Assembly (NCBI RefSeq): GCF_044324785.1
Contig: NZ_CP172127.1
Source: Escherichia coli
Lineage (GTDB): Bacteria > Pseudomonadota > Gammaproteobacteria > Enterobacterales > Enterobacteriaceae
DNA length: 64,000 nt
Direction: 5' to 3' (one strand)
This document shows, in pieces, positions 1,857 to 60,989 of this stretch (its first letter is position 1; each line of letters starts with the position of its first letter). The notes under the pieces are model-generated. The model had not been told where the DNA came from. It worked only from the letters and a program-made list of their open reading frames with translations, and did no database searches. Position numbers and translations under genes: made by a program.

Positions 1857-1857
1857 C

Positions 1858-2222: not shown

Positions 2223-2223
2223 A

Positions 2224-2259
2224 AAACCGCTGCTTCAAAAAGATGAGGCAGCGGTTTCT
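2224..2259. terminator. Hairpin with flanking A and T tracts between convergent yecJ and ftnB (likely bidirectional terminator)
   Basis: aaaccgctgc ... gcagcggttt inverted repeat. Confidence 0.5.
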
Positions 2260-2299
2260 CAAAAACTTCATCGGCGCAATGCATTAGCGCCGATGATGA

Positions 2300-22560: not shown

Positions 22561-22568
22561 TTTGTATT

Positions 22569-22633
22569 GCCTGATGTGGCGTGACTACGTCATATCAGGC
22601 GGTCGGATAACGCGATGACGCCGCATCCGACAA
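22569..22633. repeat. REP/BIME element (two REP-like palindromic units) between cheZ and flhB
   Basis: gcctgatgtggcgtgactacgtcatatcaggc followed by ggtcggataacgcgatgacgccgcatccgacaa, resembling the enterobacterial REP consensus. Confidence 0.6.
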
Positions 22634-28945: not shown

Positions 28946-29701
<756 letters not shown>

Positions 29702-29747
29702 TTTTTACCGTTGCATCATGTCGCCCAATATGATGCTTGCTCGTACC

Positions 29748-29781
29748 AGGCCCCTGCAATTTCAACAGGGGCCTTTTTTTA
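29748..29781 (+). terminator. Rho-independent terminator after cutC
   Basis: Stem aggcccctg / caggggcct followed by TTTTTTT. Confidence 0.8.
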
Positions 29782-30086
29782 TCCCCGAGAAGTATAAAAA
29801 ACGAACGATTTCCGTGATCAGTTGAGCGCGTGACAGTGCGCATAGCGTTGTGCTAAAAATTTTTATATATTCATATTAATTATGTAATTTAAATTACTAA
29901 AACTGACAAATATATATTCTAAATAACAACTGGGTTATTCCTTAGCAATTAATGATTACATTGTAATAAATCATATTCTTTATCGATTATTTCAGGCAGT
30001 GTTGTGCCGAATTATGCAAGCGGTCAATTCGTTGTATATTTAATTATACAATGATTTCGGTGTTCTGGAATTAATTAGAGGAATCT

Positions 30087-31187
30087 ATGCGAGGGAAAAA
30101 ACGCATTGGGTTATTGTTTTTGCTGATAACGGTTGTGGTTGGTGGCGGCGGGTTATTACTGGCGCAAAAAGCCTTACATAAAACGTCGGATACCGCATTT
30201 TGCCTTTCCTGCCACTCGATGAGTAAACCTTTTGAGGAATATCAGGGAACTGTCCACTTTTCTAACCAGAAAGGGATACGTGCGGAATGTGCCGATTGCC
30301 ATATTCCAAAGTCAGGGATGGATTATTTATTTGCTAAATTAAAAGCTTCTAAAGATATTTATCATGAATTTGTTAGCGGCAAAATAGACAGTGACGATAA
30401 GTTCGAAGCGCATCGTCAGGAAATGGCCGAAACAGTATGGAAAGAATTAAAAGCAACTGATTCTGCAACGTGTCGTAGTTGCCATTCTTTTGATGCCATG
30501 GATATTGCCTCGCAAAGTGAATCTGCGCAGAAAATGCATAACAAAGCGCAAAAGGACGGCGAAACCTGTATCGATTGTCATAAAGGCATTGCCCATTTTC
30601 CACCAGAAATAAAAATGGATGACAACGCGGCGCATGAGCTGGAAAGTCAGGCCGCTACTTCAGTTACCAATGGCGCACATATTTATCCTTTCAAACCTTC
30701 TCGTATAGGCGAACTGGCTACCGTGAATCCTGGTACCGATCTCACCGTCGTTGATACCAGTGGCAAACAGCCGATCGTTTTGTTGCAGGGTTATCAAATG
30801 CAGGGCAGTGAAAACACGCTCTACCTGGCGGCAGGTCAACGGCTGGCGCTAGCCACATTAAGTGAAGAAGGTATCAAGGCGCTGACGGTAAACGGGGAAT
30901 GGCAGGCTGACGAGTACGGCAATCAATGGCGTCAGGCGTCTTTACAGGGTGTGCTTACCGATCCCGCATTAGCGGACCGTAAACCGCTATGGCAATACGC
31001 TGAAAAACTTGACGATACCTATTGCGCTGGTTGCCATGCGCCTATTGCCGCCGACCATTACACCGTCAATGCTTGGCCGTCCATTGCCAAAGGTATGGGT
31101 GCGCGAACCAGCATGAGCGAAAACGAACTGGACATTTTGACGCGGTACTTCCAGTACAACGCCAAAGATATTACCGAGAAACAGTGA
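30087..31187 (+). CDS. torY: Pentaheme c-type cytochrome TorY (NapC/NirT family)
   Basis: ORF track 366 aa; multiple CxxCH heme-binding motifs. Confidence 0.93.
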
Positions 31188-31211
31188 TCCTCGTTGATCA
31201 GGGAGGAAGTT

Positions 31212-33641
31212 ATGACATTAACAAGACGTGAATTTATTAAACACAGCGGTATTGCCGCTGGGGCGCTGGTGGTGACATCGGCTGCACCGCTACCCGCATG
31301 GGCAGAAGAGAAGGGTGGCAAAATCCTCACCGCGGGCCGTTGGGGAGCGATGAACGTAGAAGTGAAGGACGGCAAGATTGTTTCTTCGACAGGCGCGCTG
31401 GCGAAAACCATACCGAACTCCTTACAGTCTACGGCGGCGGATCAGGTACACACCACGGCGCGTATTCAGCATCCGATGGTGAGAAAAAGCTATCTCGATA
31501 ATCCACTGCAACCAGCGAAAGGTCGTGGCGAAGATACCTATGTACAGGTGAGCTGGGAACACGTATTAAAACTGATTCATGAGCAACACGATCGTATTCG
31601 TAAAGCTAACGGACCATCGGCCATTTTTGCCGGATCTTACGGCTGGCGATCTTCTGGCGTGTTGCATAAAGCGCAAACCTTACTGCAACGTTATATGAAC
31701 CTAGCGGGCGGTTATTCCGGGCATAGCGGCGATTATTCAACCGGGGCGGCACAGGTGATCATGCCGCATGTGGTCGGTTCTGTAGAGGTGTATGAACAGC
31801 AGACCTCCTGGCCGCTGATTCTGGAAAACAGCCAGGTTGTGGTGCTGTGGGGGATGAACCCGCTGAATACCTTAAAAATTGCCTGGAGCAGTACCGATGA
31901 GCAAGGGCTGGAATACTTCCATCAGCTGAAAAAATCTGGCAAACCAGTGATTGCCATTGATCCTATCCGCTCCGAAACCATCGAATTCTTTGGCGATAAT
32001 GCCACCTGGATCGCGCCGAATATGGGCACCGACGTGGCTCTGATGTTAGGTATCGCGCATACCCTGATGACACAAAGCAAACACGATAAAGTGTTCCTTG
32101 AAAAATACACCACCGGGTATCCGCAGTTTGAAGAGTATCTGACAGGTAAGAGCGATAATACGCCGAAGAGCGCGGCCTGGGCGGCGGAAATTACTGGCAT
32201 ACCGGAAGCGCAGATAGTCAAACTCGCTGAACTGATGGCGGCAAATCGCACAATGCTGATGGCAGGCTGGGGAATTCAGCGCCAGCAATATGGTGAACAG
32301 AAACACTGGATGCTGGTGACGCTGGCGGCGATGTTAGGGCAGATTGGTACACCGGGCGGCGGTTTTGGTTTCTCTTATCATTACTCCAACGGTGGCAACC
32401 CGACGCGTGTTGGCGGCGTGCTGCCGGAAATGTCTGCGGCGATTGCCGGACAGGCCAGCGAGGCCGCTGATGATGGCGGAATGACGGCGATTCCTGTTGC
32501 CCGTATCGTTGATGCGCTGGAAAATCCTGGCGGCAAATATCAGCATAACGGTAAAGAACAAACGTATCCGAATATCAAAATGATCTGGTGGGCGGGTGGC
32601 GGTAACTTTACCCATCACCAGGATACTAATCGTCTGATCAAAGCATGGCAGAAACCGGAGATGATCGTCGTTTCTGAATGCTACTGGACCGCAGCTGCTA
32701 AACATGCAGATATCGTATTACCGATCACCACATCGTTTGAGCGCAATGACTTGACGATGACCGGTGATTACAGCAACCAGCATATTGTGCCGATGAAGCA
32801 GGCTGTTGCTCCGCAATTTGAAGCGCGAAACGATTTTGATGTGTTTGCCGATCTTGCGGAATTACTCAAACCTGGCGGAAAAGAGATCTATACCGAAGGT
32901 AAAGATGAAATGGCGTGGCTGAAATTTTTCTATGATGCCGCTCAGAAAGGTGCCCGTGCGCAACGCGTCACTATGCCAATGTTTAATGCCTTCTGGCAGC
33001 AAAATAAACTGATCGAAATGCGCCGCAGCGAGAAGAACGAACAGTACGTTCGTTATGGTGATTTCCGCGCCGATCCGGTGAAAAATGCGCTGGGTACGCC
33101 AAGCGGCAAAATTGAGATTTACTCCAAAACGCTGGAAAAATTTGGCTATAAGGATTGCCCGGCACACCCAACCTGGCTTGCGCCTGATGAGTGGAAAGGT
33201 TCCGCCGACGAGAAGCAGTTGCAGCTTCTGACCGCACATCCGGCACACCGTTTACACAGTCAGCTTAACTATGCGGAACTGCGTAAAAAATATGCGGTTG
33301 CCGATCGTGAACCGATCACTATTCACACCGAAGATGCTGCTCGCTTTGGTATTGCGAATGGCGATCTGGTGCGTGTCTGGAACAAACGTGGTCAGATTCT
33401 GACAGGCGCGGTGGTGACTGACGGGATCAAAAAAGGCGTGGTATGCGTGCATGAAGGTGCATGGCCAGATCTGGAAAATGGCTTGTGTAAAAACGGCAGT
33501 GCGAACGTGTTAACGGCGGATATCCCCAGCTCTCAGCTGGCAAATGCCTGTGCCGGTAACTCTGCGCTGGTGTATATCGAAAAATATACGGGCAATGCAC
33601 CGAAGTTAACGGCGTTTGATCAGCCAGCTGTTCAGGCATAA
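31212..33641 (+). CDS. torZ: Trimethylamine-N-oxide reductase 2, molybdoenzyme TorZ (Tat signal)
   Basis: ORF track 31194..33641; start [10 protein letters not shown] at 31212 (809 aa) with twin-arginine motif. Confidence 0.93.
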
Positions 33642-33692
33642 GACGTGAAAAGCGCCCGGAAACGGGCGCTGAGGTTATGCAAACGTAAAACT

Positions 33693-33791
33693 GCCTGATG
33701 CGCTATGCTTATAAGGCCTACATAGTCCCTGCAATATATTGAATTAGCAAGATTTTGTAGGCCGGATAAGGCGTTCACGCCGCATCCGGCA
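33693..33791. repeat. REP/BIME element between convergent torZ and cmoB
   Basis: gtaggccggataaggcgttcacgccgcatccggca is a near-consensus REP; a second degenerate unit lies upstream. Confidence 0.7.
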
Positions 33792-33805
33792 GTAATACCA
33801 GACCT

Positions 33806-35953
<2,148 letters not shown>

Positions 35954-36005
35954 ACAAACTCCCTTTAAAATGGCCGATGGCACCTGTCTATGATAGGTGG
36001 CAAAT

Positions 36006-36824
36006 TCAGAAAAGAGAAGATTGCTGTGGAATAGCCGGAACTGCTCCGATCTCTGGAAGCGTTTTACGTAAGTCTTCCCACAGGGTATGTACCAGTTCCG
36101 GGGCCTGGGCAATATCTGGCGTATGTAAAAAAAGATAAGGCGTAGTGGTCTGATGCCACTGCGCTAATTTTTGTAACCAGACCTGAAATAATTCCCGGTT
36201 TTGCGTCATATCATCACTACCGATAAAACGGATCAGCGGATTTGTCGCCGTCAGTACAGCATGTACCGGAACTTTAGGTTTTTTTCGTTGAGCGTCGCGA
36301 ATAGCTTCACTGTGTGGACGTGCTGCATGAACCGGGCGGCTGTCTAAAATCACCCGATTAACGCCGCGCTGATGTAAACCGCGATTAAGTGTTTGTTCCT
36401 CTTCCCCTTTGGCGAAAAACTGTGGATGGCGGACTTCCACACCATAATTAAACTCGCCGGGAAGAGAGTCGAGAAAATGCCAAAGCGCAGGCAGATCCCG
36501 TGGGCCAAATGTGGCAGGCAGTTGCAGCCAGTATTGCCCAATGCGCGGCGCTAACGGTGACATGCGGGTCAAAAATTCAGTCACTAAATCATCGCAATGC
36601 CGTAATGCTGCCTGATGCGAAATGGTCGCCGGAAACTTAAAACAGAAGCGAAAATTATCTGTGGTCTGCTCACGCCAGCGCAGGACAACCTCGGATTTCG
36701 GCAGGGCGTAAAGCGTGGTGTTGCCCTCCACACAGTTAAAGTGGCGGGCATACTCTTCAAGGCTGGTGATCCCCAACCGCACCCATTTAGGATGCGACCA
36801 TTGCGGCAGACCGATGTAAATCAT
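36006..36824 (-). CDS. yecE: DUF72-family protein YecE
   Basis: ORF track 272 aa. Confidence 0.9.
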
Positions 36825-37387
36825 AATGCGTGGAGGATCTCTTCCACACTGCGCACACGGGCGATGCGTGGGTAGATATGGGTGATGCTGTTATTGTGCT
36901 GCTCGGCGCTGGCGGCGCTGCAGGCGTCTTCGGCAATCACCAGATTAAAACCGAGTTCCCAGGCATTGCGGGCGGTGGATTCAACACCGATATTGGTCGA
37001 GATCCCACATAATACTATTGTATCGATACCCCGGCGGCGTAATTGCAACTCCAGATCCGTACCGTAAAACGCACCCCATTGACGTTTGATGATTTCGATA
37101 TCACTGTCAGTTGCACCTAATGCAGCAGGATGTTGCCACCAGTTTTCGGGCAACACTTTAGCGGGGGAAGGGGCATCAACCGGCTGTTTTAATGCTTCGG
37201 CATAATCGGCAGACCAGCCAACGCGCACCAGAAACACGGGCTGACCGCTGGCGCGAAATTTCGCCGCCAGCTGCCCGGCGCGAATAACCACCTCATCGGC
37301 AGTATGTGGACCTCCGGCAAAAGGTAAGATGCCTTCTTGTAAATCAATCACCACCAGCGCGGTGGTTTTAGCATTAAGTTCAAGCAT
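36821..37387 (-). CDS. yecD: Isochorismatase-family hydrolase YecD
   Basis: ORF track 36821..37402; start [15 protein letters not shown] (188 aa). Confidence 0.9.
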
Positions 37388-37696
37388 GATGACTCCTGAC
37401 AAAACAAAATCGTGCCTCTCACCTTAATGCGATTAGCCGATGGCGGAACGACAAATTTTGTTAATTTTTATGAGTTCGGGCAACACCTTTATAGCAAACT
37501 GGCGTAGAGTCTGATTTCAGGCCCGATATAAAGTGGTAACGAGGCGTTCCAGCGCGGGCCAGGCTCTTACGGTGCGGCAGAATTTCCAGTATAATAGCCG
37601 CCTTTTTTCATTCAGTTGTGACATACAGCTAACGCTGCGACTTGGTCACCTGCGCAGCAGGGGGCATCCGCCGGCAGCTAAGTTAAGGGATATCTC

Positions 37697-39469
37697 ATGC
37701 GTACAGAATATTGTGGACAGCTCCGTTTGTCCCACGTGGGGCAGCAGGTGACTCTGTGTGGTTGGGTCAACCGTCGTCGTGATCTTGGTAGCCTGATCTT
37801 CATCGATATGCGCGACCGCGAAGGTATCGTGCAGGTATTTTTCGATCCGGATCGTGCGGACGCGTTAAAGCTGGCCTCTGAACTGCGTAATGAGTTCTGC
37901 ATTCAGGTCACGGGCACCGTACGTGCGCGTGACGAAAAAAATATTAACCGCGATATGGCGACCGGCGAAATCGAAGTGCTGGCGTCCTCGCTGACTATCA
38001 TCAACCGCGCAGATGTTCTGCCGCTTGACTCTAACCACGTCAACACCGAAGAAGCGCGTCTGAAATACCGCTACCTCGACCTGCGTCGCCCGGAAATGGC
38101 TCAGCGCCTGAAAACCCGCGCTAAAATCACCAGCCTGGTGCGCCGTTTTATGGATGACCACGGCTTCCTCGACATCGAAACTCCGATGCTGACCAAAGCC
38201 ACGCCGGAAGGCGCGCGTGACTACCTGGTGCCTTCTCGTGTGCACAAAGGTAAATTCTACGCACTGCCGCAATCCCCGCAGTTGTTCAAACAGCTGCTGA
38301 TGATGTCCGGCTTTGACCGTTACTATCAGATCGTTAAATGCTTCCGTGACGAAGACCTGCGCGCTGATCGTCAGCCTGAATTTACTCAGATCGATGTGGA
38401 AACTTCTTTCATGACCGCGCCGCAAGTGCGTGAAGTGATGGAAGCGCTGGTGCGTCATCTGTGGCTGGAAGTGAAGGGCGTGGATCTGGGTGATTTCCCG
38501 GTAATGACCTTTGCAGAAGCAGAACGCCGTTATGGTTCTGATAAACCGGATCTGCGTAACCCGATGGAACTGACCGACGTTGCCGATCTGCTGAAATCCG
38601 TTGAATTTGCAGTATTTGCAGGTCCGGCGAACGATCCGAAAGGCCGTGTTGCCGCTCTGCGTGTTCCGGGTGGCGCATCGCTGACCCGTAAACAGATCGA
38701 CGAATACGGTAACTTCGTTAAAATCTACGGCGCGAAAGGTCTGGCTTACATCAAAGTTAACGAACGCACGAAAGGTCTGGAAGGTATCAACAGCCCGGTA
38801 GCGAAGTTCCTTAATGCAGAAATCATCGAAGCCATCCTGGATCGTACTGCCGCGCAAGATGGCGATATGATTTTCTTCGGTGCCGACAACAAGAAAATTG
38901 TTGCCGACGCGATGGGTGCACTGCGCCTGAAAGTGGGTAAAGACCTTGGTCTGACCGACGAAAGCAAATGGGCACCGCTGTGGGTTATCGACTTCCCGAT
39001 GTTTGAAGACGACGGTGAAGGCGGCCTGACGGCAATGCACCATCCGTTCACCTCACCGAAAGACATGACTGCTGCAGAACTGAAAGCTGCACCAGAAAAT
39101 GCGGTGGCGAACGCTTACGATATGGTCATCAATGGTTACGAAGTGGGCGGTGGTTCAGTACGTATCCATAATGGTGATATGCAGCAGACGGTGTTTGGTA
39201 TTCTGGGTATCAACGAAGAGGAACAGCGCGAGAAATTCGGCTTCCTGCTCGACGCCCTGAAATACGGTACTCCGCCGCACGCAGGTCTGGCATTCGGTCT
39301 TGACCGTCTGACCATGCTGCTGACCGGCACCGACAATATCCGTGACGTTATCGCCTTCCCGAAAACCACGGCGGCAGCATGTCTGATGACTGAAGCACCG
39401 AGCTTTGCTAACCCGACTGCACTGGCTGAGCTGAGCATTCAGGTTGTGAAGAAGGCAGAGAATAACTGA
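37697..39469 (+). CDS. aspS: Aspartate--tRNA ligase AspS
   Basis: ORF track 590 aa. Confidence 0.97.
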
Positions 39470-39586
39470 TATGACTCAAATACACGAAATCATTCGCGTT
39501 GCATCGAGGCGGCAACTGAGTGAACTCCCATGAGCATAGATAACTATGTGAATGGGATGAGCGAAGGCAGTCAACGAAGAGGCAGC

Positions 39587-40039
39587 GTGAAGGATAAAGT
39601 GTATAAGCGTCCCGTTTCGATCTTAGTGGTCATCTATGCACAAGATACGAAACGGGTGCTGATGTTGCAGCGGCGTGACGATCCCGATTTCTGGCAGTCG
39701 GTAACCGGCAGCGTGGAAGAGGGTGAAACCGCGCCGCAAGCTGCCATGCGCGAAGTAAAGGAAGAGGTCACCATCGATGTTGTCGCTGAACAACTGACCT
39801 TAATTGACTGTCAGCGCACGGTAGAATTTGAAATTTTTTCACATTTACGTCATCGCTATGCGCCGGGCGTGACGCGTAATACGGAATCATGGTTCTGTCT
39901 TGCGCTCCCGCACGAACGCCAGGTCGTCTTCACTGAACATCTGGCCTACAAGTGGCTTGATGCGCCTGCTGCGGCGGCGCTCACTAAGTCCTGGAGCAAC
40001 CGGCAGGCGATTGAACAGTTTGTCATTAACGCTGCCTGA
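39587..40039 (+). CDS. nudB: Dihydroneopterin triphosphate diphosphatase NudB (Nudix)
   Basis: ORF track 39530..40039; GTG start at 39587 (150 aa); Nudix box [21 protein letters not shown]. Confidence 0.9.
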
Positions 40040-40067
40040 ACAGGCAGGGCTATCTGGAGATATTTTT

Positions 40068-40808
40068 ATGGCAGGTCATAGTAAATGGGCCAACACCAGA
40101 CATCGTAAAGCTGCGCAGGATGCTAAGCGCGGTAAAATCTTCACTAAAATCATTCGTGAGCTGGTAACTGCAGCTAAGCTCGGCGGTGGCGATCCGGACG
40201 CTAACCCGCGTCTGCGTGCAGCAATTGATAAAGCATTGTCTAACAACATGACCCGTGACACTCTGAACCGCGCAATTGCACGTGGTGTGGGCGGTGATGA
40301 TGATGCAAACATGGAAACCATCATCTACGAAGGTTACGGTCCTGGCGGCACGGCAATCATGATTGAATGTCTGTCTGACAACCGCAACCGTACCGTTGCT
40401 GAAGTGCGTCATGCATTCAGCAAATGTGGCGGTAACCTCGGTACTGATGGTTCCGTAGCTTATCTGTTCAGCAAAAAAGGCGTGATCTCCTTCGAGAAAG
40501 GCGATGAAGACACCATCATGGAAGCAGCACTGGAAGCAGGTGCTGAAGACGTTGTGACCTATGATGACGGCGCGATTGATGTCTACACTGCATGGGAAGA
40601 AATGGGTAAAGTGCGCGACGCTCTGGAAGCGGCAGGTCTGAAAGCAGACAGCGCGGAAGTTTCCATGATCCCGTCCACCAAAGCTGATATGGATGCAGAA
40701 ACCGCACCGAAACTGATGCGTCTGATCGATATGCTGGAAGATTGCGACGACGTGCAGGAAGTCTACCATAACGGTGAAATCTCTGATGAGGTTGCAGCGA
40801 CTCTCTGA
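40068..40808 (+). CDS. yebC: YebC/PmpR-family transcriptional regulator
   Basis: ORF track 39900..40808; start [14 protein letters not shown] at 40068 (246 aa). Confidence 0.93.
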
Positions 40809-40842
40809 TGGGGCCTGCTAAACAGCAAAACGGAGACGCGTG

Positions 40843-41364
40843 ATGGCTATTATTCTCGGCATTGACCCGGGTTCGCGCGTGACCGGCTATGGCGTCATCC
40901 GCCAGGTAGGCAGGCAATTGTCCTACCTGGGTAGCGGATGCATACGCACCAAAGTGGATGATTTACCGTCTCGTCTGAAGCTCATCTATGCGGGCGTGAC
41001 GGAAATCATCACCCAGTTCCAGCCTGATTATTTCGCCATTGAACAAGTCTTTATGGCGAAGAACGCTGACTCAGCCCTGAAACTGGGTCAGGCGCGCGGC
41101 GTGGCGATTGTGGCGGCGGTGAATCAGGAATTACCAGTATTTGAATACGCGGCACGTCAGGTAAAGCAAACGGTGGTAGGTATTGGTAGTGCCGAAAAAA
41201 GCCAGGTGCAGCATATGGTCCGCACCTTGCTGAAACTGCCCGCTAACCCGCAGGCGGACGCCGCCGATGCGTTAGCTATCGCGATTACCCACTGCCACGT
41301 CAGTCAGAATGCGATGCAGATGAGCGAATCGCGGCTGAACCTGGCGAGAGGGCGACTGCGTTAA
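40843..41364 (+). CDS. ruvC: Holliday junction resolvase RuvC
   Basis: ORF track 40840..41364 (173 aa). Confidence 0.95.
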
Positions 41365-41365
41365 G

Positions 41366-41968
41366 TTATACCGCCTCGGTCAGTTCCGGCTGAGGCGTTT
41401 CCACTCCCTCCGCATGAATCAACACCAAACCCGGATGATGCCACAAACTGGCTGGCGTGACGGTTTTACGCTCCCACGGAATAGAACCTAAGAACCAGAA
41501 TTTCCAGAAAGTGAGTTTTGCATTCGGATTGCTATTTAACAGTTCTCCAAACGTCTCTATTTCACCCACCGGAATACATAGCGCCTCTTTATAAATATCA
41601 AAAACAAATTTTGAACAGAACTGGCGCGAAGATTCGTATTTAAAACCGGTGTGGTAAAGTTTGCGTAACCGGGAGGGAACCTGTTCAACAATTCGTTGTT
41701 TTTGTTGTTGTGTTAGCCCGGCGTCTAATCGTTTTATAGCATAGCGTTGATTAGCAGAACGTTTAATAAAACGAGACAGCGTGGTGATAGTTGAAAGGGG
41801 AACCCGGCTTTCTGCAACCAGGAAGTCTTCACCGTTATGACCGATAATGATCCCGACGTGATTACTCCAGCAATTTGATGCAGCTGATATTTGACCAAAT
41901 AAGGCAGCACCTATACATGTAAAGACGATATCACCAATTTCATATTCAGCAGGGTAATTAATATTCAT
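41366..41968 (-). CDS. yebB: DUF830-family protein YebB
   Basis: ORF track 41366..42067; start trimmed to [10 protein letters not shown] (200 aa). Confidence 0.8.
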
Positions 41969-42173
41969 GTTGTCATTCCATTGAAATAGATATGAATATA
42001 CGTAATAGCATAAATAATTTATTTTTTCAGGAGGCGCAATGTATATTTTAATTACGCATTTCTTCACTGAATATGTAATATTTAAATATTTGCTTCCAAT
42101 ATAACCTGTAGAAAAAATTCTACTGCGTCATTTTTCAGAACATCGGGACGCCTCGCAAGTTTTCTTCATCCTT

Positions 42174-42193
42174 CGCTGGATATCTATCCAGCA
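42174..42193. promoter_or_regulatory. LexA (SOS) box upstream of ruvAB: CTGG-N8-CCAG core
   Basis: cgctggatatctatccagca; palindromic CTG-N10-CAG pattern 50 bp upstream of ruvA. Confidence 0.7.
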
Positions 42194-42242
42194 TTTTTTT
42201 ATCATACAGCATTATCTTTGATTCATTACGCAGGAGCGTCAT

Positions 42243-42854
42243 GTGATAGGCAGACTCAGAGGCATCATCATTGAAAAACAACCCCCGCTGGTGTTAATTG
42301 AAGTGGGCGGCGTAGGCTATGAAGTGCATATGCCGATGACCTGTTTTTATGAACTCCCTGAAGCGGGTCAGGAAGCGATCGTTTTCACCCACTTTGTGGT
42401 GCGTGAAGACGCGCAATTGCTGTACGGTTTTAACAATAAACAAGAGCGCACGTTGTTCAAAGAGTTGATCAAAACCAACGGCGTCGGCCCGAAGTTGGCG
42501 CTGGCGATCCTCTCTGGAATGTCAGCGCAGCAGTTCGTTAATGCCGTTGAGCGTGAAGAAGTGGGGGCGCTGGTGAAACTGCCGGGTATTGGCAAAAAAA
42601 CCGCCGAACGCTTGATTGTTGAAATGAAAGACCGATTTAAAGGTTTGCATGGCGATCTCTTTACGCCAGCCGCCGACCTGGTACTCACATCACCTGCCAG
42701 CCCGGCGACCGACGATGCTGAACAGGAAGCGGTTGCCGCGCTGGTGGCGCTGGGCTATAAACCACAAGAAGCAAGCCGCATGGTGAGCAAAATCGCTCGC
42801 CCTGACGCCAGCAGTGAAACATTAATTCGCGAAGCCCTACGCGCCGCGTTATGA
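42243..42854 (+). CDS. ruvA: Holliday junction branch migration protein RuvA
   Basis: ORF track 203 aa (GTG start). Confidence 0.95.
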
Positions 42855-42859
42855 GGTAA

Positions 42860-43873
<1,014 letters not shown>

Positions 43874-44004
43874 GTCGGATTGGTCGCTCGCGGTGCATCC
43901 GACACTGGCAGTGTTGCCTGATGCGCCGCTATTCGCGTCTTATCAGGCATATACCAGAGATAGCGAACCATAGGTCGGATAAGGCGCTCGCGCCGCATCC
44001 GACA
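43874..44004. repeat. BIME cluster of three REP-like palindromic units between ruvB and znuB
   Basis: gtcggattggtcgctcgcggtgcatccgaca / gcctgatgcgccgctattcgcgtcttatcaggc / gtcggataaggcgctcgcgccgcatccgaca. Confidence 0.7.
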
Positions 44005-44022
44005 AATGTGTTCAGCGATAGA

Positions 44023-44808
44023 TTAGCTGGCTTGCTTTTTCATCATACTGATAATAAATAACAGTGCCGCACATAGCACCACCGACGGACCCGCCGGCGT
44101 ATCGTAAAATGCGGAAAAGGTTAAACCGCCAGTTACTGCCACCATTCCCACCAAAACAGCGACACCGGCCATCTGTTCCGGCGTGCGGGCAAAGCGACGC
44201 GCAGTAGCTGCAGGAATAATTAGCAACGAAGTAATAATCAACGCGCCGACAAATTTCATCGCTACACCAATCGTCAATGCCGTCACCAGCATCAACAACA
44301 ATTTCACGCGCTGTAATTTCACTCCATCAACAAACGCCAGATCCGGGCTAATCGTCATCGACAGCAAATTGCGCCATTGCCAGAACAAAATCGCCACCAC
44401 GATGACCACGCCAATTGCAATAGAGATGAGATCTTCTGGCGTCACTGCCAGCAAATCACCGAACAGGTAAGCCATCAAATCAACACGAATATTAGACATC
44501 AGACTAACGACAACCAGGCCCAGCGACAGGGCACTGTGCGCCATAATCCCTAATAACGTGTCGATCGCCAGCTGTGGACGCTTCTCCAGCCATACCAGAC
44601 CGCCCGCCAGCAGCAGCGTAACTGCAATCACCGCATAGAATGGATTCACGTCCAGCAACAAACCAAACGCGACGCCAAGTAATGAGGCATGAGCCAGCGT
44701 ATCACCGAAATAAGACATACGACGCCAGACCACAAACGAACCCAGCGGACCCGCGGCACAGGCGAGCATGATCCCGGCTAACCAACCGGGAAATAATAAT
44801 TCAATCAT
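44023..44808 (-). CDS. znuB: Zinc ABC transporter permease ZnuB
   Basis: ORF track 261 aa. Confidence 0.95.
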
Positions 44809-45560
44809 GAGCGATCATTTCCCCGACGCAAAACAATTCGTCCCTGTAAATCGTGACGATGATTATGATGATGGCGATAGATACCCAGTTGTTCAGCACC
44901 ACGAGGACCAAACATAGAAATAAACTCCGGATGCAGGGAAACAACTTCCGGTGTACCGGAACAACAAATGTGGTGATTCAGGCAAAGCACTTCATCGGTT
45001 TTTGCCATTACCAGATGCAGATCGTGAGAGACCATTAAAACGCCACAATCCAGTTCGCGACGCAACTGGTCAATAAGGTCATATAACGCCACCTGACCAT
45101 TCACATCCACGCCCTGAGTGGGTTCATCCAGCACTAATAATTGCGGTCGATTTAACAATGCTCGCGCTAACAATACACGCTGTGTTTCGCCACCCGAGAG
45201 CTTTTGCATCGGTGCGTTAATCAGATGCCCGGCCTGGACACGTTTCAGTGCAGGCAAAATATCTTCTTTATGTGTGCCAGGGCGTAAGCGTAAAAAACGG
45301 TTTACGGTCAGTGGCAACGTGGTGTCGAGATACAGCTTCTGCGGTACATAGCCGATGCGCAGTTTTCCGTTGCGCTTGATAACCCCTTCATCGGGTGTTA
45401 CCAGCCCGAGCACTACCCGTACCAGTGTCGACTTACCTGCGCCATTTGGCCCAAGTAAAGTCAAAATTTTTCCAGGTTTAAGTTCCAGCGACACATCAGA
45501 GAGGACGCGGCGTTGGCCAAAAGAAACCGAGACATTTTCCAGGGAAACCAGACTTGTCAT
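44805..45560 (-). CDS. znuC: Zinc ABC transporter ATP-binding protein ZnuC
   Basis: ORF track 251 aa; Walker [10 protein letters not shown]. Confidence 0.95.
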
Positions 45561-45586
45561 GTTAATTTTAGTCTTGCAGTAGTCAT

Positions 45587-45609
45587 GAAATGTTATAATA
45601 TCACACTTC
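45587..45609. promoter_or_regulatory. Zur box in the znuCB/znuA divergent promoter region
   Basis: gaaatgttataatatcacacttc resembles the GAAATGTTATA-N-TATAACATTTC Zur operator consensus. Confidence 0.65.
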
Positions 45610-45638
45610 TCATATTCATTACGATGATTGGTCGCATT

Positions 45639-46571
45639 ATGTTACATAAAAAAACGCTTCTTTTCGCAGCATTATCCGCCGCTCTCTGGGGCGGTGCAAC
45701 ACAGGCCGCAGATGCTGCCGTTGTCGCTTCGCTTAAACCCGTTGGGTTCATCGCTTCTGCCATTGCTGATGGGGTAACAGAAACGGAGGTTTTACTACCT
45801 GACGGCGCTTCAGAACATGATTATTCACTGCGTCCATCAGATGTAAAACGCTTACAGAACGCGGACTTAGTCGTTTGGGTTGGCCCGGAGATGGAAGCGT
45901 TCATGCAAAAACCGGTAAGTAAATTACCTGAAGCGAAACAGGTAACGATTGCGCAGCTAGAGAATGTGAAACCGCTGCTGATGAAAAGTATTCACGGCGA
46001 TGATGATGATCACGACCACGCGGAAAAAAGTGACGAAGATCACCATCACGGCGATTTCAACATGCATCTTTGGCTTTCCCCAGAGATAGCGCGGGCTACA
46101 GCGGTTGCAATCCATGGAAAATTAGTGGAACTTATGCCGCAAAGTCGAGCCAAACTTGACGCCAACCTGAAGGATTTTGAGGCACAATTAGCCTCAACCG
46201 AAAAGCAGGTTGGTAACGAGCTCGCGCCGCTCAAGGGGAAAGGTTATTTCGTTTTTCACGATGCTTACGGCTATTTCGAAAAACAGTTCGGACTGACACC
46301 GCTTGGTCATTTTACCGTTAACCCTGAGATTCAACCTGGCGCGCAGCGTTTACATGAAATAAGAACACAGTTGGTTGAGCAAAAAGCAACCTGCGTTTTT
46401 GCTGAGCCACAGTTCAGGCCAGCGGTCGTTGAGAGCGTCGCACGAGGGACATCCGTTCGTATGGGAACGTTGGATCCCCTGGGGACGAATATCAAACTGG
46501 GTAAAACAAGCTATTCAGAATTCCTGAATCAATTAGCCAACCAGTATGCGAGCTGCCTGAAAGGAGATTAA
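45639..46571 (+). CDS. znuA: Zinc ABC transporter periplasmic binding protein ZnuA (His-rich loop)
   Basis: ORF track 45513..46571; start [10 protein letters not shown] at 45639 (310 aa); His/Asp-rich segment [21 protein letters not shown]. Confidence 0.93.
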
Positions 46572-46586
46572 TGAGGAAGTGATTAC

Positions 46587-47909
46587 GTGCAACAGATAGC
46601 CCGCTCTGTCGCCCTGGCGTTTAATAATTTACCGCGACCACACCGCGTTATGTTGGGGTCGCTCACCGTTCTTACTCTGGCCGTCGCTGTCTGGCGGCCC
46701 TATGTTTATCACCGCGATGCCACGCCAATTGTCAAAACCATTGAGCTGGAACAGAACGAAATTCGTTCGCTCTTACCTGAAGCCAGTGAGCCGATTGATC
46801 AAGCTGCACAAGAAGATGAAGCCATTCCCCAGGATGAACTGGATGACAAAATCGCCGGTGAAGCGGGCGTGCATGAATATGTTGTTTCCACTGGCGATAC
46901 GCTAAGCAGCATTCTCAATCAGTATGGTATTGATATGGGTGATATCACCCAACTGGCTGCTGCCGACAAAGAATTGCGTAACCTGAAAATCGGTCAACAA
47001 CTCTCCTGGACATTAACCGCGGACGGCGAACTGCAGCGCCTCACTTGGGAAGTGTCTCGTCGTGAAACCCGAACCTATGACCGTACTGCCGCTAACGGTT
47101 TTAAAATGACCAGCGAAATGCAGCAAGGAGAGTGGGTTAACAATCTGCTGAAAGGTACCGTCGGGGGAAGCTTTGTTGCCAGCGCCAGAAACGCCGGTTT
47201 AACCAGCGCTGAAGTGAGCGCAGTGATTAAAGCCATGCAGTGGCAAATGGATTTCCGCAAACTGAAAAAAGGCGATGAATTTGCGGTGTTAATGTCACGA
47301 GAAATGCTTGATGGTAAACGTGAGCAAAGCCAGCTGCTGGGCGTACGTTTGCGTTCAGAAGGTAAAGATTATTACGCAATCCGCGCTGAAGATGGCAAAT
47401 TCTACGATCGTAACGGTACTGGTCTGGCGAAAGGATTCTTGCGATTCCCGACGGCGAAACAGTTCCGTATCTCGTCTAACTTTAACCCGCGTCGTACTAA
47501 TCCGGTGACTGGTCGTGTTGCGCCACACAGAGGTGTTGATTTCGCCATGCCACAGGGTACGCCGGTGCTTTCAGTGGGTGACGGTGAAGTGGTGGTTGCC
47601 AAACGCAGTGGCGCAGCAGGTTATTATGTGGCTATTCGTCATGGTCGCAGCTACACCACGCGTTATATGCACTTGCGCAAGATCCTGGTGAAACCGGGAC
47701 AGAAGGTGAAACGTGGCGACCGTATCGCGCTTTCCGGTAATACCGGACGTTCAACCGGGCCGCATCTGCACTATGAAGTATGGATAAACCAGCAGGCCGT
47801 AAACCCGCTGACGGCAAAACTGCCGCGTACCGAAGGGCTGACCGGCTCCGATCGTCGCGAATTCCTGGCGCAGGCCAAAGAGATTGTGCCGCAGCTACGG
47901 TTTGATTAA
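46587..47909 (+). CDS. mepM: Murein DD-endopeptidase MepM (LysM + M23 peptidase)
   Basis: ORF track 440 aa. Confidence 0.93.
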
Positions 47910-47924
47910 TTAACATCCATTCGC

Positions 47925-47956
47925 AGCCGGTACGCAGTCAGTACCGGCTTTTTTTA
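47925..47956 (+). terminator. Rho-independent terminator after mepM
   Basis: Stem agccggtac / gtaccggct followed by TTTTTTT. Confidence 0.8.
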
Positions 47957-48028
47957 TTTGGTGCGGGGCAAGTTGCGCCGCTACACTATCACCAGATTGA
48001 TTTTTGCCTTATCCGAAACTGGAAAAGC

Positions 48029-49000
48029 ATGGAAACGAAAAAAAATAATAGCGAATACATTCCTGAGTTTGATAAATCCTTTCGCCACACGCGCTACTGG
48101 GGAGCATGGCTGGGCGTAGCAGCGATGGCGGGTATCGCTTTAACGCCGCCAAAGTTTCGCGACCCCATTCTGGCACGGCTGGGACGTTTTGCCGGACGAC
48201 TGGGAAAAAGCTCACGCCGTCGTGCGTTAATCAATTTGTCGCTCTGCTTTCCAGAACGTAGTGAAGCTGAACGCGAAGCGATTGTTGATGAGATGTTTGC
48301 CACCGCGCCGCAAGCGATGGCAATGATGGCTGAGTTGGCAATACGCGGGCCGGAGAAAATTCAGCCGCGCGTTGACTGGCAAGGGCTGGAGATCATCGAA
48401 GAGATGCGACGTAATAACGAGAAAGTGATCTTTCTGGTGCCGCACGGTTGGGCCGTCGATATTCCCGCCATGCTGATGGCCTCGCAAGGGCAGAAAATGG
48501 CAGCGATGTTCCATAATCAGGGCAACCCGGTTTTTGATTATGTCTGGAACACGGTGCGTCGTCGTTTTGGCGGTCGTCTGCATGCGAGAAATGATGGTAT
48601 TAAACCATTCATCCAGTCGGTACGTCAGGGCTACTGGGGATATTATTTACCCGATCAGGATCATGGCCCAGAGCACAGCGAATTTGTTGATTTCTTTGCC
48701 ACCTATAAAGCGACGTTGCCCGCGATTGGTCGTTTGATGAAAGTGTGTCGTGCGCGCGTTGTACCGCTGTTTCCGATTTATGATGGCAAGACGCATCGCC
48801 TGACGATTCAGGTGCGCCCACCGATGGATGATCTGTTAGAGGCGGATGATCATACGATTGCGCGGCGGATGAATGAAGAAGTCGAGATTTTTGTTGGTCC
48901 GCGACCAGAACAATACACCTGGATATTAAAATTGCTGAAAACTCGCAAACCGGGCGAAATCCAACCGTATAAGCGCAAAGATCTTTATCCCATCAAATAA
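48029..49000 (+). CDS. lpxM: Lipid A myristoyltransferase LpxM (MsbB)
   Basis: ORF track 323 aa. Confidence 0.95.
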
Positions 49001-49090
49001 AAAAAGCCTCTCGCGAGGAGAGGCTTCCGCCGTGTGATAAGTTCAAGTTTGCTTCAGAAGATTCGAAATCTGTTGAACTATCATTGAACT

Positions 49091-49125
49091 GTAGGCCGGA
49101 TGAGGCGTTTTCGCCGCATCCGGCA
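49091..49125. repeat. REP element between convergent lpxM and pykA
   Basis: gtaggccggatgaggcgttttcgccgcatccggca, near-consensus REP. Confidence 0.7.
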
Positions 49126-49131
49126 ACGTAC

Positions 49132-50574
49132 TTACTCTACCGTTAAAATACGCGTGGTATTAGTAGAACCCACGGTACTCATCACGTCGCCCTGGGTGAC
49201 AATCACCAGGTCACCAGACATCAAGTAACCTTTATCGCGCAGCAGATTAACCGCTTCGCTGGCAGCTGCTACGCCGTCATTAGCGCTATCGAAGTGCACC
49301 GGCGTAACGCCGCGATAGAGAGCAGTCAGGTTCAGCGTACGTTCATGACGTGACATGGCGAAAATCGGCAGACCGGAGCTGATACGGGAGGTCATCAGCG
49401 CGGTACGACCCGATTCGGTCATGGTGATGATCGCCGTAACGCCTTTCAGGTGGTTAGCCGCGTACATTGCTGACATGGCAATAGCTTCTTCCACATTGTC
49501 GAACTGCACGTCCAGACGGTGTTTAGAAACGTTGATGCTCGGGATTTTTTCCGCACCCAGGCAAACGCGCGCCATGGCTGCAACAGTTTCTGAAGGATAC
49601 TGACCAGCAGCAGTTTCTGCGGACAGCATCACAGCGTCAGTACCATCCAGAACGGCGTTTGCTACGTCCATGACTTCTGCACGCGTCGGCATCGGGTTAG
49701 TAATCATTGACTCCATCATCTGGGTCGCCGTGATTACTGCGCGGTTAAGCTGACGCGCACGACGGATCAATGCTTTCTGAATGCCGACCAGTTCCGGATC
49801 GCCAATTTCCACACCGAGGTCGCCGCGAGCAACCATTACCACGTCAGAGGCGAGGATGATGTCATCCATTGCATCCTGGCTGCAAACGGCTTCCGCACGT
49901 TCAACCTTGGCAACAATTTTCGCATCACATCCTGCATCGCGTGCCAGCCGACGGGCATAGTTCAGATCTTCGCCGCAGCGTGGGAAGGAGACAGCCAGGT
50001 AATCTACGCCAATTAACGCCGCAGTCTTAATGTCTGCTTTGTCTTTTTCGGTCAGCGCTTCAGCCGACAAACCGCCGCCAAGTTTGTTGATACCTTTATT
50101 GTTGGAGAGGGGACCACCGACGGTCACTTCGGTGAACACTTTCATACCCTGAACTTCCAGTACTTTTAACTGAACGCGACCATCGTCCAGCAGCAGGATG
50201 TCACCAGGCACAACGTCAGCAGGCAGGCCTTTGTAGTCGATACCGACTTTTTCTTTGTCGCCTTCACCTTTACCCAGGTTGGCGTCGAGCAGGAATTTAT
50301 CCCCGATATTGAGGAAAACTTTGCCTTCTTTAAAGGTGGATACACGGATTTTGGGCCCCTGGAGGTCACCCAGAATAGCCACATGACGCCCCAGTTTTGC
50401 GGCAATCTCACGAACTTTATCCGCGCGCATTTTGTGATCTTCAGGCGAGCCGTGAGAAAAGTTCATACGTACAACGTTTGCACCCGCTGCGATAACTTTT
50501 TCAAGGTTATTATCGCGATCTGTTGCTGGGCCTAACGTGGTAACGATTTTTGTTCTGCGAAGCCTTCTGGACAT
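49132..50574 (-). CDS. pykA: Pyruvate kinase II PykA
   Basis: ORF track 49132..50715; start [19 protein letters not shown] at 50574 (480 aa). Confidence 0.95.
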
Positions 50575-57783: not shown

Positions 57784-58188
<405 letters not shown>

Positions 58189-58514
58189 TGGCCTCTGATA
58201 ATTCGATTGACCGTCGGCGGATGCGGCGCGAGTGCCTGGTCCGCCCTACAAGGCACCTCAATCGGAGGCCTGAGAAGACGCAACAGCGTCGCATCGGGCA
58301 ATCAGCATCAAACAATGCCACTCAAAACGTCAAATTACTTTCACCTAAAATACCCTTATCACCTGATATACAGTGAACACCTTACCTGGCGCGAATTTCT
58401 TTGAATAACGGCCTGCCGACCCGCTTATTTGCGCATCTTTTGTCTCGATATACATTTTCTGACATCCTCATCCGCTATGCTACAGGCACTAAAAATGGTT
58501 ATTGAGGAGCAAAT

Positions 58515-59280: not shown

Positions 59281-59500
59281 CCATTACCTGTCATCATGTG
59301 ACTGCTCCCCGCCCTGTCGGGCGAGGCTTCCCACTTCTTAAGCCGCAACCGTCTGTGTGACGGATTTACGCTGGCCTCCATGGGCAGAAACGACGAGTCC
59401 CGCCGCTTGTAATTCCAGTATGCCCTTGCGTTTGATGTTGAGCGCCGCGTTGATATCGCGGTCATGTTCAACTCCACACTCTGGACACTGCCAGATGCGC
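59281..59500 (-). ncRNA. Predicted TnpB guide RNA (omegaRNA / right-end RNA): scaffold overlapping the tnpB 3' end and right-end hairpin, guide from adjacent flank
   Basis: Inferred from the established architecture of TnpB systems (omegaRNA encoded at the tnpB 3' end through the IS right end); not directly visible as a gene; boundaries are approximate. Confidence 0.3.
59307..59326. repeat. Subterminal imperfect hairpin at the tnpB-proximal IS end (ccccgccc tgtc gggcgagg)
   Basis: 5-bp GC stem + mismatch + 2 bp; same motif and orientation as the hairpin at the other end. Confidence 0.7.
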
Positions 59501-60507
59501 TTATGTAATGGCATCTCCGACATTTTGTGACCGCAGCAGTGGCAGGTCTTCGAACTGGCGAACCATTGATCCAGTTTCACCAGATGCACACCTTTCTCTG
59601 TTGCTTTGTATTCCAGTTTTGTGATGAATCCAGACCATCCAGCATCGCCTATCGCACGAGCCAGATGGTGATTTTTCATCATATTTGCCGTTTTCAATGT
59701 CTCGACAATTACCGCTTGGTTTTCGTCAACAATTGCGCGAGATAACTTGTGCTGGAAATCGGCACGGGCACTAGCTACCCGTTCGTGAACGGCTGCAAGT
59801 TGTATTCTGGCTTTGCGCCTGTTTGCGCTCCCTTTTTTCTTACGGGACAGTGCTTTCTGCTTCCGGCGCAGGTTGCGACTTGCATTGATTAGGTGGCGGG
59901 GACTGGCAATTTTATTGCCGTCCGATTTGATGACAAAATGCGCCAGCCCCATATCCAGCCCTGTCACATTTGATATCAGTGCGGGCTTTGCCGGCGCTTC
60001 CATCCCGTCGTCACAGAGTAACGACGCGTAGTATTTCCCGGTTGCGCTGCGGCTCAACGTGATACTTTTCAGCATTCCCGTAATTTCACGATGTAAACGC
60101 GCTTCAATCGGCAAGATTTTCGGTATTTTTATCGCACCATCAAGGACTTTTATGCCAACACAATGATAGCTCGATTGTCTGCCGTGTTTACTTTTAAAGG
60201 TTGGTTTACCTGCTTTCAGTTTCGGATTGAAAAAGTTAGAAAAAGCCACGTCGAGGTTAATTACCGCCTGCTGCAACGCAATAGAATCATATTCTTTAAG
60301 CCATCCATACCGGCGGGATTTCTTCGCCACTGCAAGCAGTGGTTTGAGGTCTTTACGCGGGTTTAAATTTACGCGGTGCCGCTGGTAAGAATGTTTCTTG
60401 ATATGCAGAGCTTTGTTGTACGCAAAACGCACTGCACCGAACTGGGCGTTGATAAATTCAGCCTGTTCTGGTGTCGGGTAGATGCGTACTTTTGTTGCTC
60501 TTAACAT
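59338..60507 (-). CDS. tnpB: TnpB (IS605 OrfB-family RNA-guided endonuclease; RuvC-like + zinc finger)
   Basis: ORF track 389 aa; N-terminus MLRATKVRIYPTPEQ is classic TnpB; RuvC-I D in GLDMGL, RuvC-II E in VIVETL, zinc finger CHCCGH...CPECG, RuvC-III DRDINAALNI; ATG start. Confidence 0.92.
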   Translation of the reverse strand: MLRATKVRIYPTPEQAEFINAQFGAVRFAYNKALHIKKHSYQRHRVNLNPRKDLKPLLAVAKKSRRYGWLKEYDSIALQQAVINLDVAFSNFFNPKLKAGKPTFKSKHGRQSSYHCVGIKVLDGAIKIPKILPIEARLHREITGMLKSITLSRSATGKYYASLLCDDGMEAPAKPALISNVTGLDMGLAHFVIKSDGNKIASPRHLINASRNLRRKQKALSRKKKGSANRRKARIQLAAVHERVASARADFQHKLSRAIVDENQAVIVETLKTANMMKNHHLARAIGDAGWSGFITKLEYKATEKGVHLVKLDQWFASSKTCHCCGHKMSEMPLHKRIWQCPECGVEHDRDINAALNIKRKGILELQAAGLVVSAHGGQRKSVTQTVAA

Positions 60508-60529
60508 AATCAGCGCTCATTGATATAAT
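60501..60529 (+). promoter_or_regulatory. Putative sigma70 promoter for tnpA (-35 TTAACA at 60501..60506, 17-nt spacer, extended -10 TGaTATAAT at 60521..60529)
   Basis: Consensus -10 TATAAT with upstream TG; followed by SD aggtgg at 60549..60554 and a TTG start at 60564. Confidence 0.45.
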
Positions 60530-60535
60530 GCTTTT

Positions 60536-60563
60536 ATTTTAACACTTTAGGTGGATATATCAA
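60536..60563 (-). promoter_or_regulatory. Putative sigma70 promoter for tnpB (-35 TTGATA at 60558..60563, 16-nt spacer, -10 TAAAAT at 60536..60541, minus strand)
   Basis: Hexamers read from sequence; no experimental support. Confidence 0.4.
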
Positions 60564-60989
60564 TTGAGTAATCATGATGATTTACTGGCGGGATTTCTCC
60601 GCAAACGACACAGTGTCAGTAAGCTGGTTGTGCACCTTATTTTTACGACAAAGTATCGACGCAAACTATTCGACAGTCAGATGATCGCTCAGTTGCGTGA
60701 GGCTTTTGGCTCCGCTGCGGCAAAGCTTGAATGCGAAATTATTGAGATGGACGGGGAGCCAGACCATGTACACCTGCTGGTTGCCTACCCGCCAAAACTG
60801 GCGGTCAGTGTGATGGTCAATAATTTAAAATCGGTATCATCACGTTTGCTACGCCAGCAGAACGCGCATTTACGTATGCAGAGTAAAACGGGGCTTTTGT
60901 GGTCGAGATCGTACTTTGTCTGTAGCACCGGAGAGGCAACGATTGAAACGCTCAGAGCCTACGTTCAGAGTCAGTCAACACCTGATTGA
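60564..60989 (+). CDS. tnpA: TnpA (IS200-type Y1 HUH single-strand transposase)
   Basis: ORF track 141 aa; HUH motif HVHLL; C-terminal catalytic Tyr region SRSYFVCSTG; conserved TTKYRR; probable TTG start preceded by AGGTGG. Confidence 0.9.
   Translation: MSNHDDLLAGFLRKRHSVSKLVVHLIFTTKYRRKLFDSQMIAQLREAFGSAAAKLECEIIEMDGEPDHVHLLVAYPPKLAVSVMVNNLKSVSSRLLRQQNAHLRMQSKTGLLWSRSYFVCSTGEATIETLRAYVQSQSTPD

Follow-up and report, generated by a model that had tools for sequence, protein, structure and literature searches.

A cluster of short palindromes lies between ruvB and znuB in Escherichia coli, at positions 43874-44004 of the window, the 64-kb chromosomal stretch analysed here. REP/BIME elements have been known from the 1980s onwards, and an earlier note on this DNA had read this cluster, together with palindromes at three other intergenic sites, as members of that family. 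The question is whether this reading is correct, or whether the palindromes are small-RNA genes, terminators or part of a CRISPR array, and what they may do beside the genes that they follow. We place the probability at about 95% that the sequences belong to the E. coli REP (palindromic unit) family, organised in BIMEs. These are non-autonomous palindromes that are spread and reshuffled by TnpA_REP and retained between genes. The assignment is supported on every defining feature that was testable. The elements are known in kind, the ruvB/znuB locus itself is found in K-12 BIME tables, and there is no departure from known biology.

Identification of the REP units

Palindromes in the window were sought with a strict head/foot regular expression, and by blastn-short with the y, z1 and z2 consensus sequences given in the methods section of Durrant et al. 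2024 (PMC11208160). The regular expression returned six palindromes (22569-22600, 22602-22631, 33761-33790, 43916-43948, 43974-44003 and 49095-49124), whereas 300 first-order Markov simulations of the window gave 0.06 on average and never more than 1. Two further, degenerate units were recognised by alignment, at 33693-33724 and 43874-43903. The blastn-short E values were 4e-13 (33757-33791), 9e-11 (49091-49125) and 3e-7 (33693-33721), followed by values of 1e-3 to 5e-3 for 43934-43948, 43971-44001 and 22604-22629. The significant matches to y, z1 or z2 in the window fall only at the four sites already noted and at 58266-58295. All four sites of the earlier note are thus genuine by consensus, fold and gene context, but a fifth, at 58216-58298, had been overlooked, and the tally is five sites and ten units (Table 1). 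Seven of the units match their consensus at between 27/32 and 34/35 positions, and the three degenerate units have 24-26 matches over 32-35 aligned nt.

Comparison with Rfam gives the same map. The naRNA4 family represents a BIME-2 unit, the 77-nt Y-l-Z2 of REP325 (PMC4550694). When the whole 64 kb was searched with naRNA4 at a permissive threshold, the matches, every one of them below the gathering score of 59.5, were confined to the five REP sites. The check on REP consensus models that the earlier note had proposed therefore yields y/z1/z2 and Rfam matches at all four of its sites. RNA folding gives stems with internal loops at every unit, which are also visible as inverted repeats; the folds of the sites have z-scores of -3.0 to -5.8, and 0/200 dinucleotide shuffles equal them.

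The units also behave as a dispersed extragenic family. A 141-nt segment of the ruvB/znuB site is found at at least 40 places per genome (median; 4582 records at 40 or more), and the BIME-1 of the torZ/cmoB site, used as a query, at a median of 37. All five sites lie between annotated CDSs, and only the box position of unit 3a overlaps a stop codon, that of ruvB. The RefSeq record of MG1655 holds no REP repeat_region features. The GTAG/CTAC box is intact in units 2a, 2b, 4 and 5a, and mutated or absent in 1a, 1b, 3a (GTAA), 3b (ATAT), 3c (ATAG) and 5b (GGAG).

Table 1. REP units and linker in the window, with strand and the evidence for each.
Feature	Positions	Strand	Evidence
Site 1a, z-like palindromic unit	22569..22600	-	regular expression; 26/33 identity to z2, 25/33 to y; 15-pair hairpin
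Site 1b, y-type, GTCGGAT variant	22602..22631	+	blastn-short vs y 88% over 26 nt, E = 0.005; 27/32 identity
Site 2a, z1 unit	33693..33724	-	z1 consensus 27/29, E = 3e-7; CTAC box 33721-33724
Site 2, L linker, 32 nt	33725..33756		Rfam ES036 match covers linker
Site 2b, near-consensus y	33757..33791	+	34/35 identity, E = 4e-13; GTAG box 33757-33760
Site 3a, degenerate y	43871..43903	+	24/35 identity to y; 81% direct repeat of 3c
Site 3b, z2 unit	43916..43948	-	31/36 identity to z2; blastn-short; regular expression
Site 3c, y, GTCGGAT variant	43971..44003	+	29/34 identity to y, E = 0.001; naRNA4 match 43973-44016
Site 4, single y	49091..49125	+	33/35 identity, E = 9e-11; intact GTAG box
Site 5a, decayed y-like unit	58216..58249	-	25/32 identity to y; weak naRNA4 match 58170-58246
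Site 5b, z2 unit	58266..58298	+	z2 90% over 30 nt, E = 2e-5; 32/37 identity

Gene setting of the five sites

Positions 30000-50000 of the window align end to end with E. coli N3, the closest genome, at 99.2% identity. The gene order in N3 is tyrP ... flhDC-mot-che-flhBAE-argS-cutC-torYZ / cmoBA ... aspS-nudB-yebC-ruvC / yebB, ruvAB / znuBC, and continues with znuA-mepM-lpxM / pyk-hexR, zwf-edd-eda / purT, yebG-yebF-yebE, the IS200/IS605 element and ptrB. By the RefSeq annotation of N3, the gene names that had been attached to the four noted sites are correct. Site 1 lies between cheZ and flhB, site 2 between torZ and cmoB, site 3 between ruvB and znuB, site 4 between lpxM and pykA, and site 5 between yebF and yebE. 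Three of these sites, torZ/cmoB, ruvB/znuB and lpxM/pyk, separate convergent genes, and two, cheZ-flhB and yebF-yebE, separate co-directional ones.

The distance from stop codon to stem is 0 nt for ruvB, whose stop codon TAA (43871-43873) is followed by the stem of unit 3a at 43874. It is 7 nt for pykA (stop codon 49132-49134, minus strand), 8 nt for cheZ (22558-22560), 15 nt for cmoB (33806-33808, minus strand), 19 nt for znuB (44023-44025, minus strand) and 27 nt for yebF. Four units therefore begin within 15 nt of a stop codon, those of ruvB, pykA, cheZ and cmoB.

Other features of the region were noted alongside the repeats. Two known sRNAs, both expected K-12-type features, have full-length Rfam matches: MicL (29473-29780, plus strand, 368 bits) near cutC, and C0465 (16137-16214, minus strand, 97.7 bits) between cheW and tar. 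In strain N3, ruvA is annotated as frameshifted (L003 12244-12854).

BIME-1 between torZ and cmoB

A BIME-1 is defined as a z1 and a y unit in inverse orientation, separated by a conserved long L linker that is associated with IHF (PMC3333891). Site 2 has exactly this layout, with z1 at 33693-33724, the linker at 33725-33756 and y at 33757-33791, and torZ/cmoB is a textbook BIME-1. Its total length is 99 nt, compared with 97 nt for typical BIME-1 entries in Table DS3 of Sutormin et al. (PMC6379681). The 3' arm of the z1 unit has one change, TATAAGGCC where the consensus is TATCAGGCC; this substitution, ATAAGG for ATCAGG, spoils the IS621 target. The y unit matches the first hairpin of naRNA4 (39.7 bits), and on the strand of the cmoB mRNA its stem begins 15 nt past the stop codon. 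Within the linker, an IHF-consensus-like site is found on the minus strand at 33732-33744 (ATTCAATATATTG), which agrees with WATCAANNNNTTR at 12 of 13 positions, in a window where the background is about 1 such match per kb.

BIME-2 between ruvB and znuB

Site 3 has the layout y-z2-y with short linkers, as is found in BIME-2, and its copy number varies by strain; ruvB/znuB is a BIME-2. The earlier count of three units here is borne out by the regular expression together with alignment (3a, 3b and 3c). The full-length naRNA4 match at 43873-43949 (47.1 bits, E = 3e-5) spans 3a and 3b. In unit 3a the position of the GTAG box reads GTAA, and its last three nucleotides are the ruvB stop codon. In this strain GTAG has become ATAG in 3c, and CTAC has become ATAT in 3b. 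K-12 and N3 retain the GTAG of 3c, and K-12 retains the CTAC of 3b, so the loss of the boxes at site 3 is decay within a true REP member. The change in 3b removes the IS621 target ATCAGGCCTAC, and this unit probably offers no target to IS621 in this strain, judging from its sequence.

The BIME of the window differs from that of K-12 at about 15 positions. For the 901-nt stretch 43500-44400, no complete E. coli genome exceeds 97.7% identity. The 3' end of ruvB (43594-43852) is close to K-12, and in the BIME and on the znuB side the sequence is more like strains 2012C-4221 and 7CC. This pattern points to a mosaic junction that falls between 43852 and 43881, on the border of the BIME. The low identity at site 3 is explained by this local mosaic. 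Origin from a divergent Escherichia was considered as its cause and rejected, since the 20 kb around it are 99.2% identical to E. coli N3.

Sites 1, 4 and 5

The remaining sites are simpler or more decayed. At site 1, unit 1a has the form GCCTGATG...ATCAGGC on the plus strand and is without a CTAC box. It is separated from 1b by 1 nt, and both GTAG/CTAC boxes and the linker are missing. A sub-threshold naRNA4 match spans the site (22568-22632). Site 1 is an atypical BIME, an abutting pair of a z-like and a y unit. Site 4 is a single y unit with a fold of -24 to -25 kcal/mol (z about -5). On the pykA mRNA, from the minus strand, it lies upstream of the pykA intrinsic terminator. At site 5, unit 5a (GGCGGATG...TCCGCCCTAC) keeps its CTAC box, and in 5b GGAG replaces GTAG. 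The two are paired foot to foot in the yebF/yebE interval, and together they form site 5 (58216-58298), a decayed pair of y plus z2 and the fifth cluster of the window.

Variation between strains and insertion sequences

The loci were compared among 5,426 complete genomes, and the counts given below are numbers of genomes, not of independent events. Two loci hardly vary in length. The length of site 1 is nearly fixed (5274/5426 genomes), and that of site 5 is constant in 5424/5426.

The other three loci vary. At ruvB/znuB there are 3 units in the window, K-12 and N3, 5 in O157:H7 and 7 in PK8217, so the comparison of copy number that had been suggested does reveal differences. At torZ/cmoB, the BIME-1 (~131 nt) is an indel polymorphism between the cmoB stop codon and its terminator and is absent in some strains. 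The 'empty-site' allele is seen in strain S1-SRB-02-B, where the terminator hairpin stands immediately 3' of the cmoB stop codon. Across lpxM/pykA, 489 genomes are without a contiguous alignment. In O111:H8 (08-4455; L013 1-3000) a multi-gene island adjoins the pykA stop codon and replaces the REP. This island encodes a GH13 glycoside hydrolase, an amidohydrolase, an alpha/beta hydrolase and a Nif3-like protein.

Insertion sequences account for further differences. A contiguous alignment at site 3 is lacking in 638 genomes, and IS insertions in the site-3 BIME are found in 626/5426 (~11.5%). An IS1397 junction in the loop of the z2 unit is common to 555 genomes, with a TGTT duplication in EC17. 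Another 71 have IS621 joined to the z2 tail at ATCCGGCCT^, as seen in strain AQ15. Each of these two groups of genomes may go back to only a few insertions. In strain JNEC-KY176, IS621 is inserted at ATCAGGCCT^AC of the site-2 z1 unit, an insertion point that is a natural IS621 target (PMC11208160). In strain 7CC, IS1397 lies in the REP loop of site 4 with a ~5 bp duplication (GTTTT). The description of these repeats as IS target hotspots thus holds at three of the four loci for which it had been proposed, with IS1397 inserted in the loops of REPs and IS621 in the tail, at ATC(A/C)GGCCT^AC.

Two side observations concern mobile DNA. UTI89 (L006 ~575-645) and EC17 (L009 ~4405-4470) carry a ~70-nt segment inside the ruvB/znuB BIME that matches, in reverse complement, the left end of the AQ15 IS621 over its first ~70 nt (L008 2949-3020). 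From this match, the segment appears to be what is left of an IS110-family end, standing alone within a y unit. In the window itself, an IS200/IS605-type element lies between yebE and ptrB (59338-60989). It consists of tnpB (59338-60507, minus strand; Pfam OrfB_IS605, Cas12f1-like TNB) and a Y1 transposase gene (60564-60989, plus strand; Pfam Y1_Tnp), and is annotated as ISEc46 in strain N3. Neither blastn-short nor naRNA4 detected REP matches flanking this element. The Y1 transposase was considered as a REP-associated RAYT and rejected on its pairing with tnpB, the ISEc46 match and the lack of flanking REPs.

Possible functions of the REP units

The earlier note had listed general roles for such repeats without assigning them to particular sites, a small shortfall. 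Gyrase cleavage sites are over-represented in BIME-2 and depleted in BIME-1 (Sutormin et al. 2019, PMC6379681). The BIME-2 'znuB>-<ruvB' of W3110 has 2 cleavage sites with ciprofloxacin, 2 with rifampicin plus ciprofloxacin, 0 with microcin B17 and 2 with oxolinic acid (PMC6379681, Table DS3). The proposal of gyrase sites is thus upheld by published Topo-Seq cleavage in the K-12 ortholog of the ruvB/znuB BIME-2. In the window, this element would be a transcription-independent site of gyrase binding and cleavage between two convergent operons. Intervals neighbouring it in Table DS3 lie ~2.85 kb beyond the expected MG1655 positions, with the coordinates of znuB/ruvB, lpxM and mepM taken from the MG1655 record. 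The ~15 differences from K-12 in the site-3 BIME mean that the K-12 gyrase data may not transfer exactly. For pykA, cheZ, flhB, yebF and yebE, the matching of intervals used the positions that we take these genes to have in MG1655. On this matching, three of the intervals would represent sites 1, 4 and 5; the one at cheZ/flhB has 2 ciprofloxacin sites, and the remaining pair has none.

Binding of IHF is expected only at the BIME-1 linker. The IHF sites of the earlier note fit torZ/cmoB, with its 12/13 consensus match, and none of the other sites. The torZ/cmoB BIME-1 would bind IHF through this linker.

At the RNA level, REP hairpins in 3' UTRs stabilise upstream mRNA. Each of the clusters occupies a 3' UTR or the interval of a convergent gene pair and would be transcribed as stable hairpins that block 3'-to-5' exonucleases. 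In this way the hairpins may set the stability and the 3' ends of the cheZ, cmoB, ruvB, znuB, pykA and yebF messages. A role as mRNA stabilisers is plausible from this placement. Published experiments show that REPs affect mRNA decay and translation (PMC12306157). PMC12306157 also cites Liang et al. 2015 for the finding that a REP within 15 nt of a stop codon stalls ribosomes and lowers expression. By this Liang-Rudd-Deutscher mechanism, the units within 15 nt of the stop codons of ruvB, pykA, cheZ and cmoB would probably hinder the terminating ribosome and lower protein output. Their proximity to the stop codon makes ruvB, pykA, cheZ and, marginally, cmoB candidates for a REP effect on expression.

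The spread of the units is a separate matter. TnpA_REP (RAYT), a single-copy Y1 transposase encoded elsewhere in the genome, would be the enzyme that spreads and reshuffles them. TnpA_REP needs GTAG for both binding and cleavage (PMC3333891). At site 3, where the GTAG/CTAC boxes have been lost, the units are thus probably inert as TnpA_REP substrates, and the same would probably apply in this strain where boxes have been lost at sites 1 and 5.

The sole mildly interesting detail of these loci is that the ruvB stop codon is contained in a REP foot, in a BIME that is variable in unit number and IS content. One could speculate that this BIME acts as an adjustable brake on the synthesis of RuvB. 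Ribosomes would stall at the hairpin as they terminate, leading to tmRNA tagging and mRNA cleavage, and the effect would differ between lineages with the number of units and with IS insertion. The idea comes from the ruvB stop codon being built into the first REP foot (GTAA, 0 nt), and we consider it unlikely. If true, it would link repeat dynamics to the dosage of the SOS branch-migration helicase.

A serious alternative to any of these functions follows from the variation between strains, which indicates that the elements are dispensable and at some loci perhaps largely neutral. Under this explanation, the units are REPs by descent, but are selfish elements or relics that persist past stop codons and in convergent intervals, where their presence is least harmful, and they add nothing to expression or to chromosome structure. 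The presence or absence of the BIME-1, the variable unit number at site 3, the tolerance of IS insertions in 626 genomes, the decayed GTAG boxes at sites 1, 3 and 5, and the island that replaces the site-4 REP in some lineages would all be expected of such repeats. However, in vivo cleavage by gyrase is on record for the K-12 ortholog of site 3, with a signal that persists in rifampicin (PMC6379681), and sites 1 and 5 keep their hairpin potential and a fixed length in >97% of genomes despite the decay of their sequence. The published effects of REPs on mRNA decay and translation (PMC12306157) also speak against neutrality. On this evidence, functional neutrality here is possible, though we lean against it.

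Small RNAs, terminators and CRISPR arrays

The palindromes could also be something other than REPs. One such reading takes them for dedicated small-RNA genes, site 2 being of the ES036/CssrF type and site 3 of the naRNA type, with the RNA product as the purpose of the locus. The Rfam ES036/CssrF match at 33714-33755 (minus strand) scores 47.7 bits against a gathering score of 37.6, the naRNA4 match at site 3 is full-length, and REP325 naRNA4 has been reported to condense DNA together with HU (PMC4550694). Yet the ES036 match is merely the L linker and foot of the BIME-1. The model corresponds to the linker plus the GTAGGCCT foot, a combination that recurs at ~78 K-12 loci (PMC6379681, Table DS3). 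All naRNA4 matches in the window remain below the gathering score, as stated above. A scan for promoter-like sites that covered the intergenic regions of sites 2-4 found none, and any RNA from these sites would arise by processing of the 3' UTRs on either side. Dedicated small-RNA genes are therefore very unlikely. The literature searched for CssrF/ES036 yielded nothing but unrelated papers.

Hairpins that are GC-rich and stand just past stop codons, at three of five sites between convergent genes, would also suit Rho-independent terminators of the flanking genes. We regard this as extremely unlikely, since no T-run follows any of the REP hairpins, and no REP unit was called in the terminator scan. 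Moreover, separate hairpins lie beyond the REPs, namely the pykA intrinsic terminator (49028-49002, minus strand) and, for cmoB, a hairpin followed by TTTT beyond the BIME-1 (33672-33649, minus strand), and the sequences are members of a family found at 40 or more places per genome. The same scan found no intrinsic terminator between ruvB and znuB.

The chance that a degenerate CRISPR array or another system of regularly spaced direct repeats is present is negligible: two of the three site-3 units are direct repeats 100 nt apart, but orientation alternates, the site-3 starts are irregularly spaced (42 and 58 nt), the annotated neighbourhood has no cas genes, and the 'spacers' are conserved BIME linkers in a repeat dispersed genome-wide, in agreement with the earlier argument against CRISPR from inverted, irregularly spaced units.

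Significance

Beyond correct annotation, the significance of these REP/BIME elements is small. Their hairpins should not be labelled terminators, CRISPRs or sRNA genes, and the Rfam models ES036 and naRNA4 flag ordinary BIMEs. The sites mark differences between assemblies and strains, in the form of unit number, IS1397 or IS621 insertions and island junctions. They also single out ruvB, pykA, cheZ and cmoB as candidate genes for REP-dependent control of translation and mRNA decay.

Comparison with known REP and BIME systems

The E. coli REP types are y, z1 and z2 (Stern 1984; Gilson and Bachellier; nomenclature of Ton-Hoang et al. 2012, PMC3333891). Like these, the units in the window are imperfect GC-rich palindromes of 30-37 nt with an internal mismatch. 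They share the G(C/T)C(G/T)GATG head, and the GTAG/CTAC foot box is intact at sites 2 and 4. They also share intergenic placing, high copy number and alternating orientation within clusters. They differ in that six of the ten units are decayed, with the box lost or mutated or the stems drifted. Three y units carry the GTCGGAT stem variant, and site 1 lacks both boxes and the linker.

Site 2 resembles the BIME-1 (RIP/RIB; z1, L linker with an IHF site, y) in its z1 unit, 32-nt linker, near-perfect y and single copy, and differs from it by the substitution in the 3' arm of z1. Site 3 is like the BIME-2 of REP325/naRNA4 and the araD-araA BIME in its y-z2-y order, short linkers and variable number of units, and its K-12 ortholog has been classed as a BIME-2 and has gyrase cleavage sites. 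It differs as a small array of 1.5 repeats in which all three boxes are mutated and the ruvB stop codon falls within the first unit.

REPtrons consist of a tnpA_REP gene flanked by BIMEs, whereas the Y1 gene of the window is part of an ordinary IS200/IS605-type element. What the REP units share with the subterminal hairpins of IS200/IS605 elements and with REPtrons is the combination of a hairpin and a tetranucleotide that Y1 (HUH) transposases recognise.
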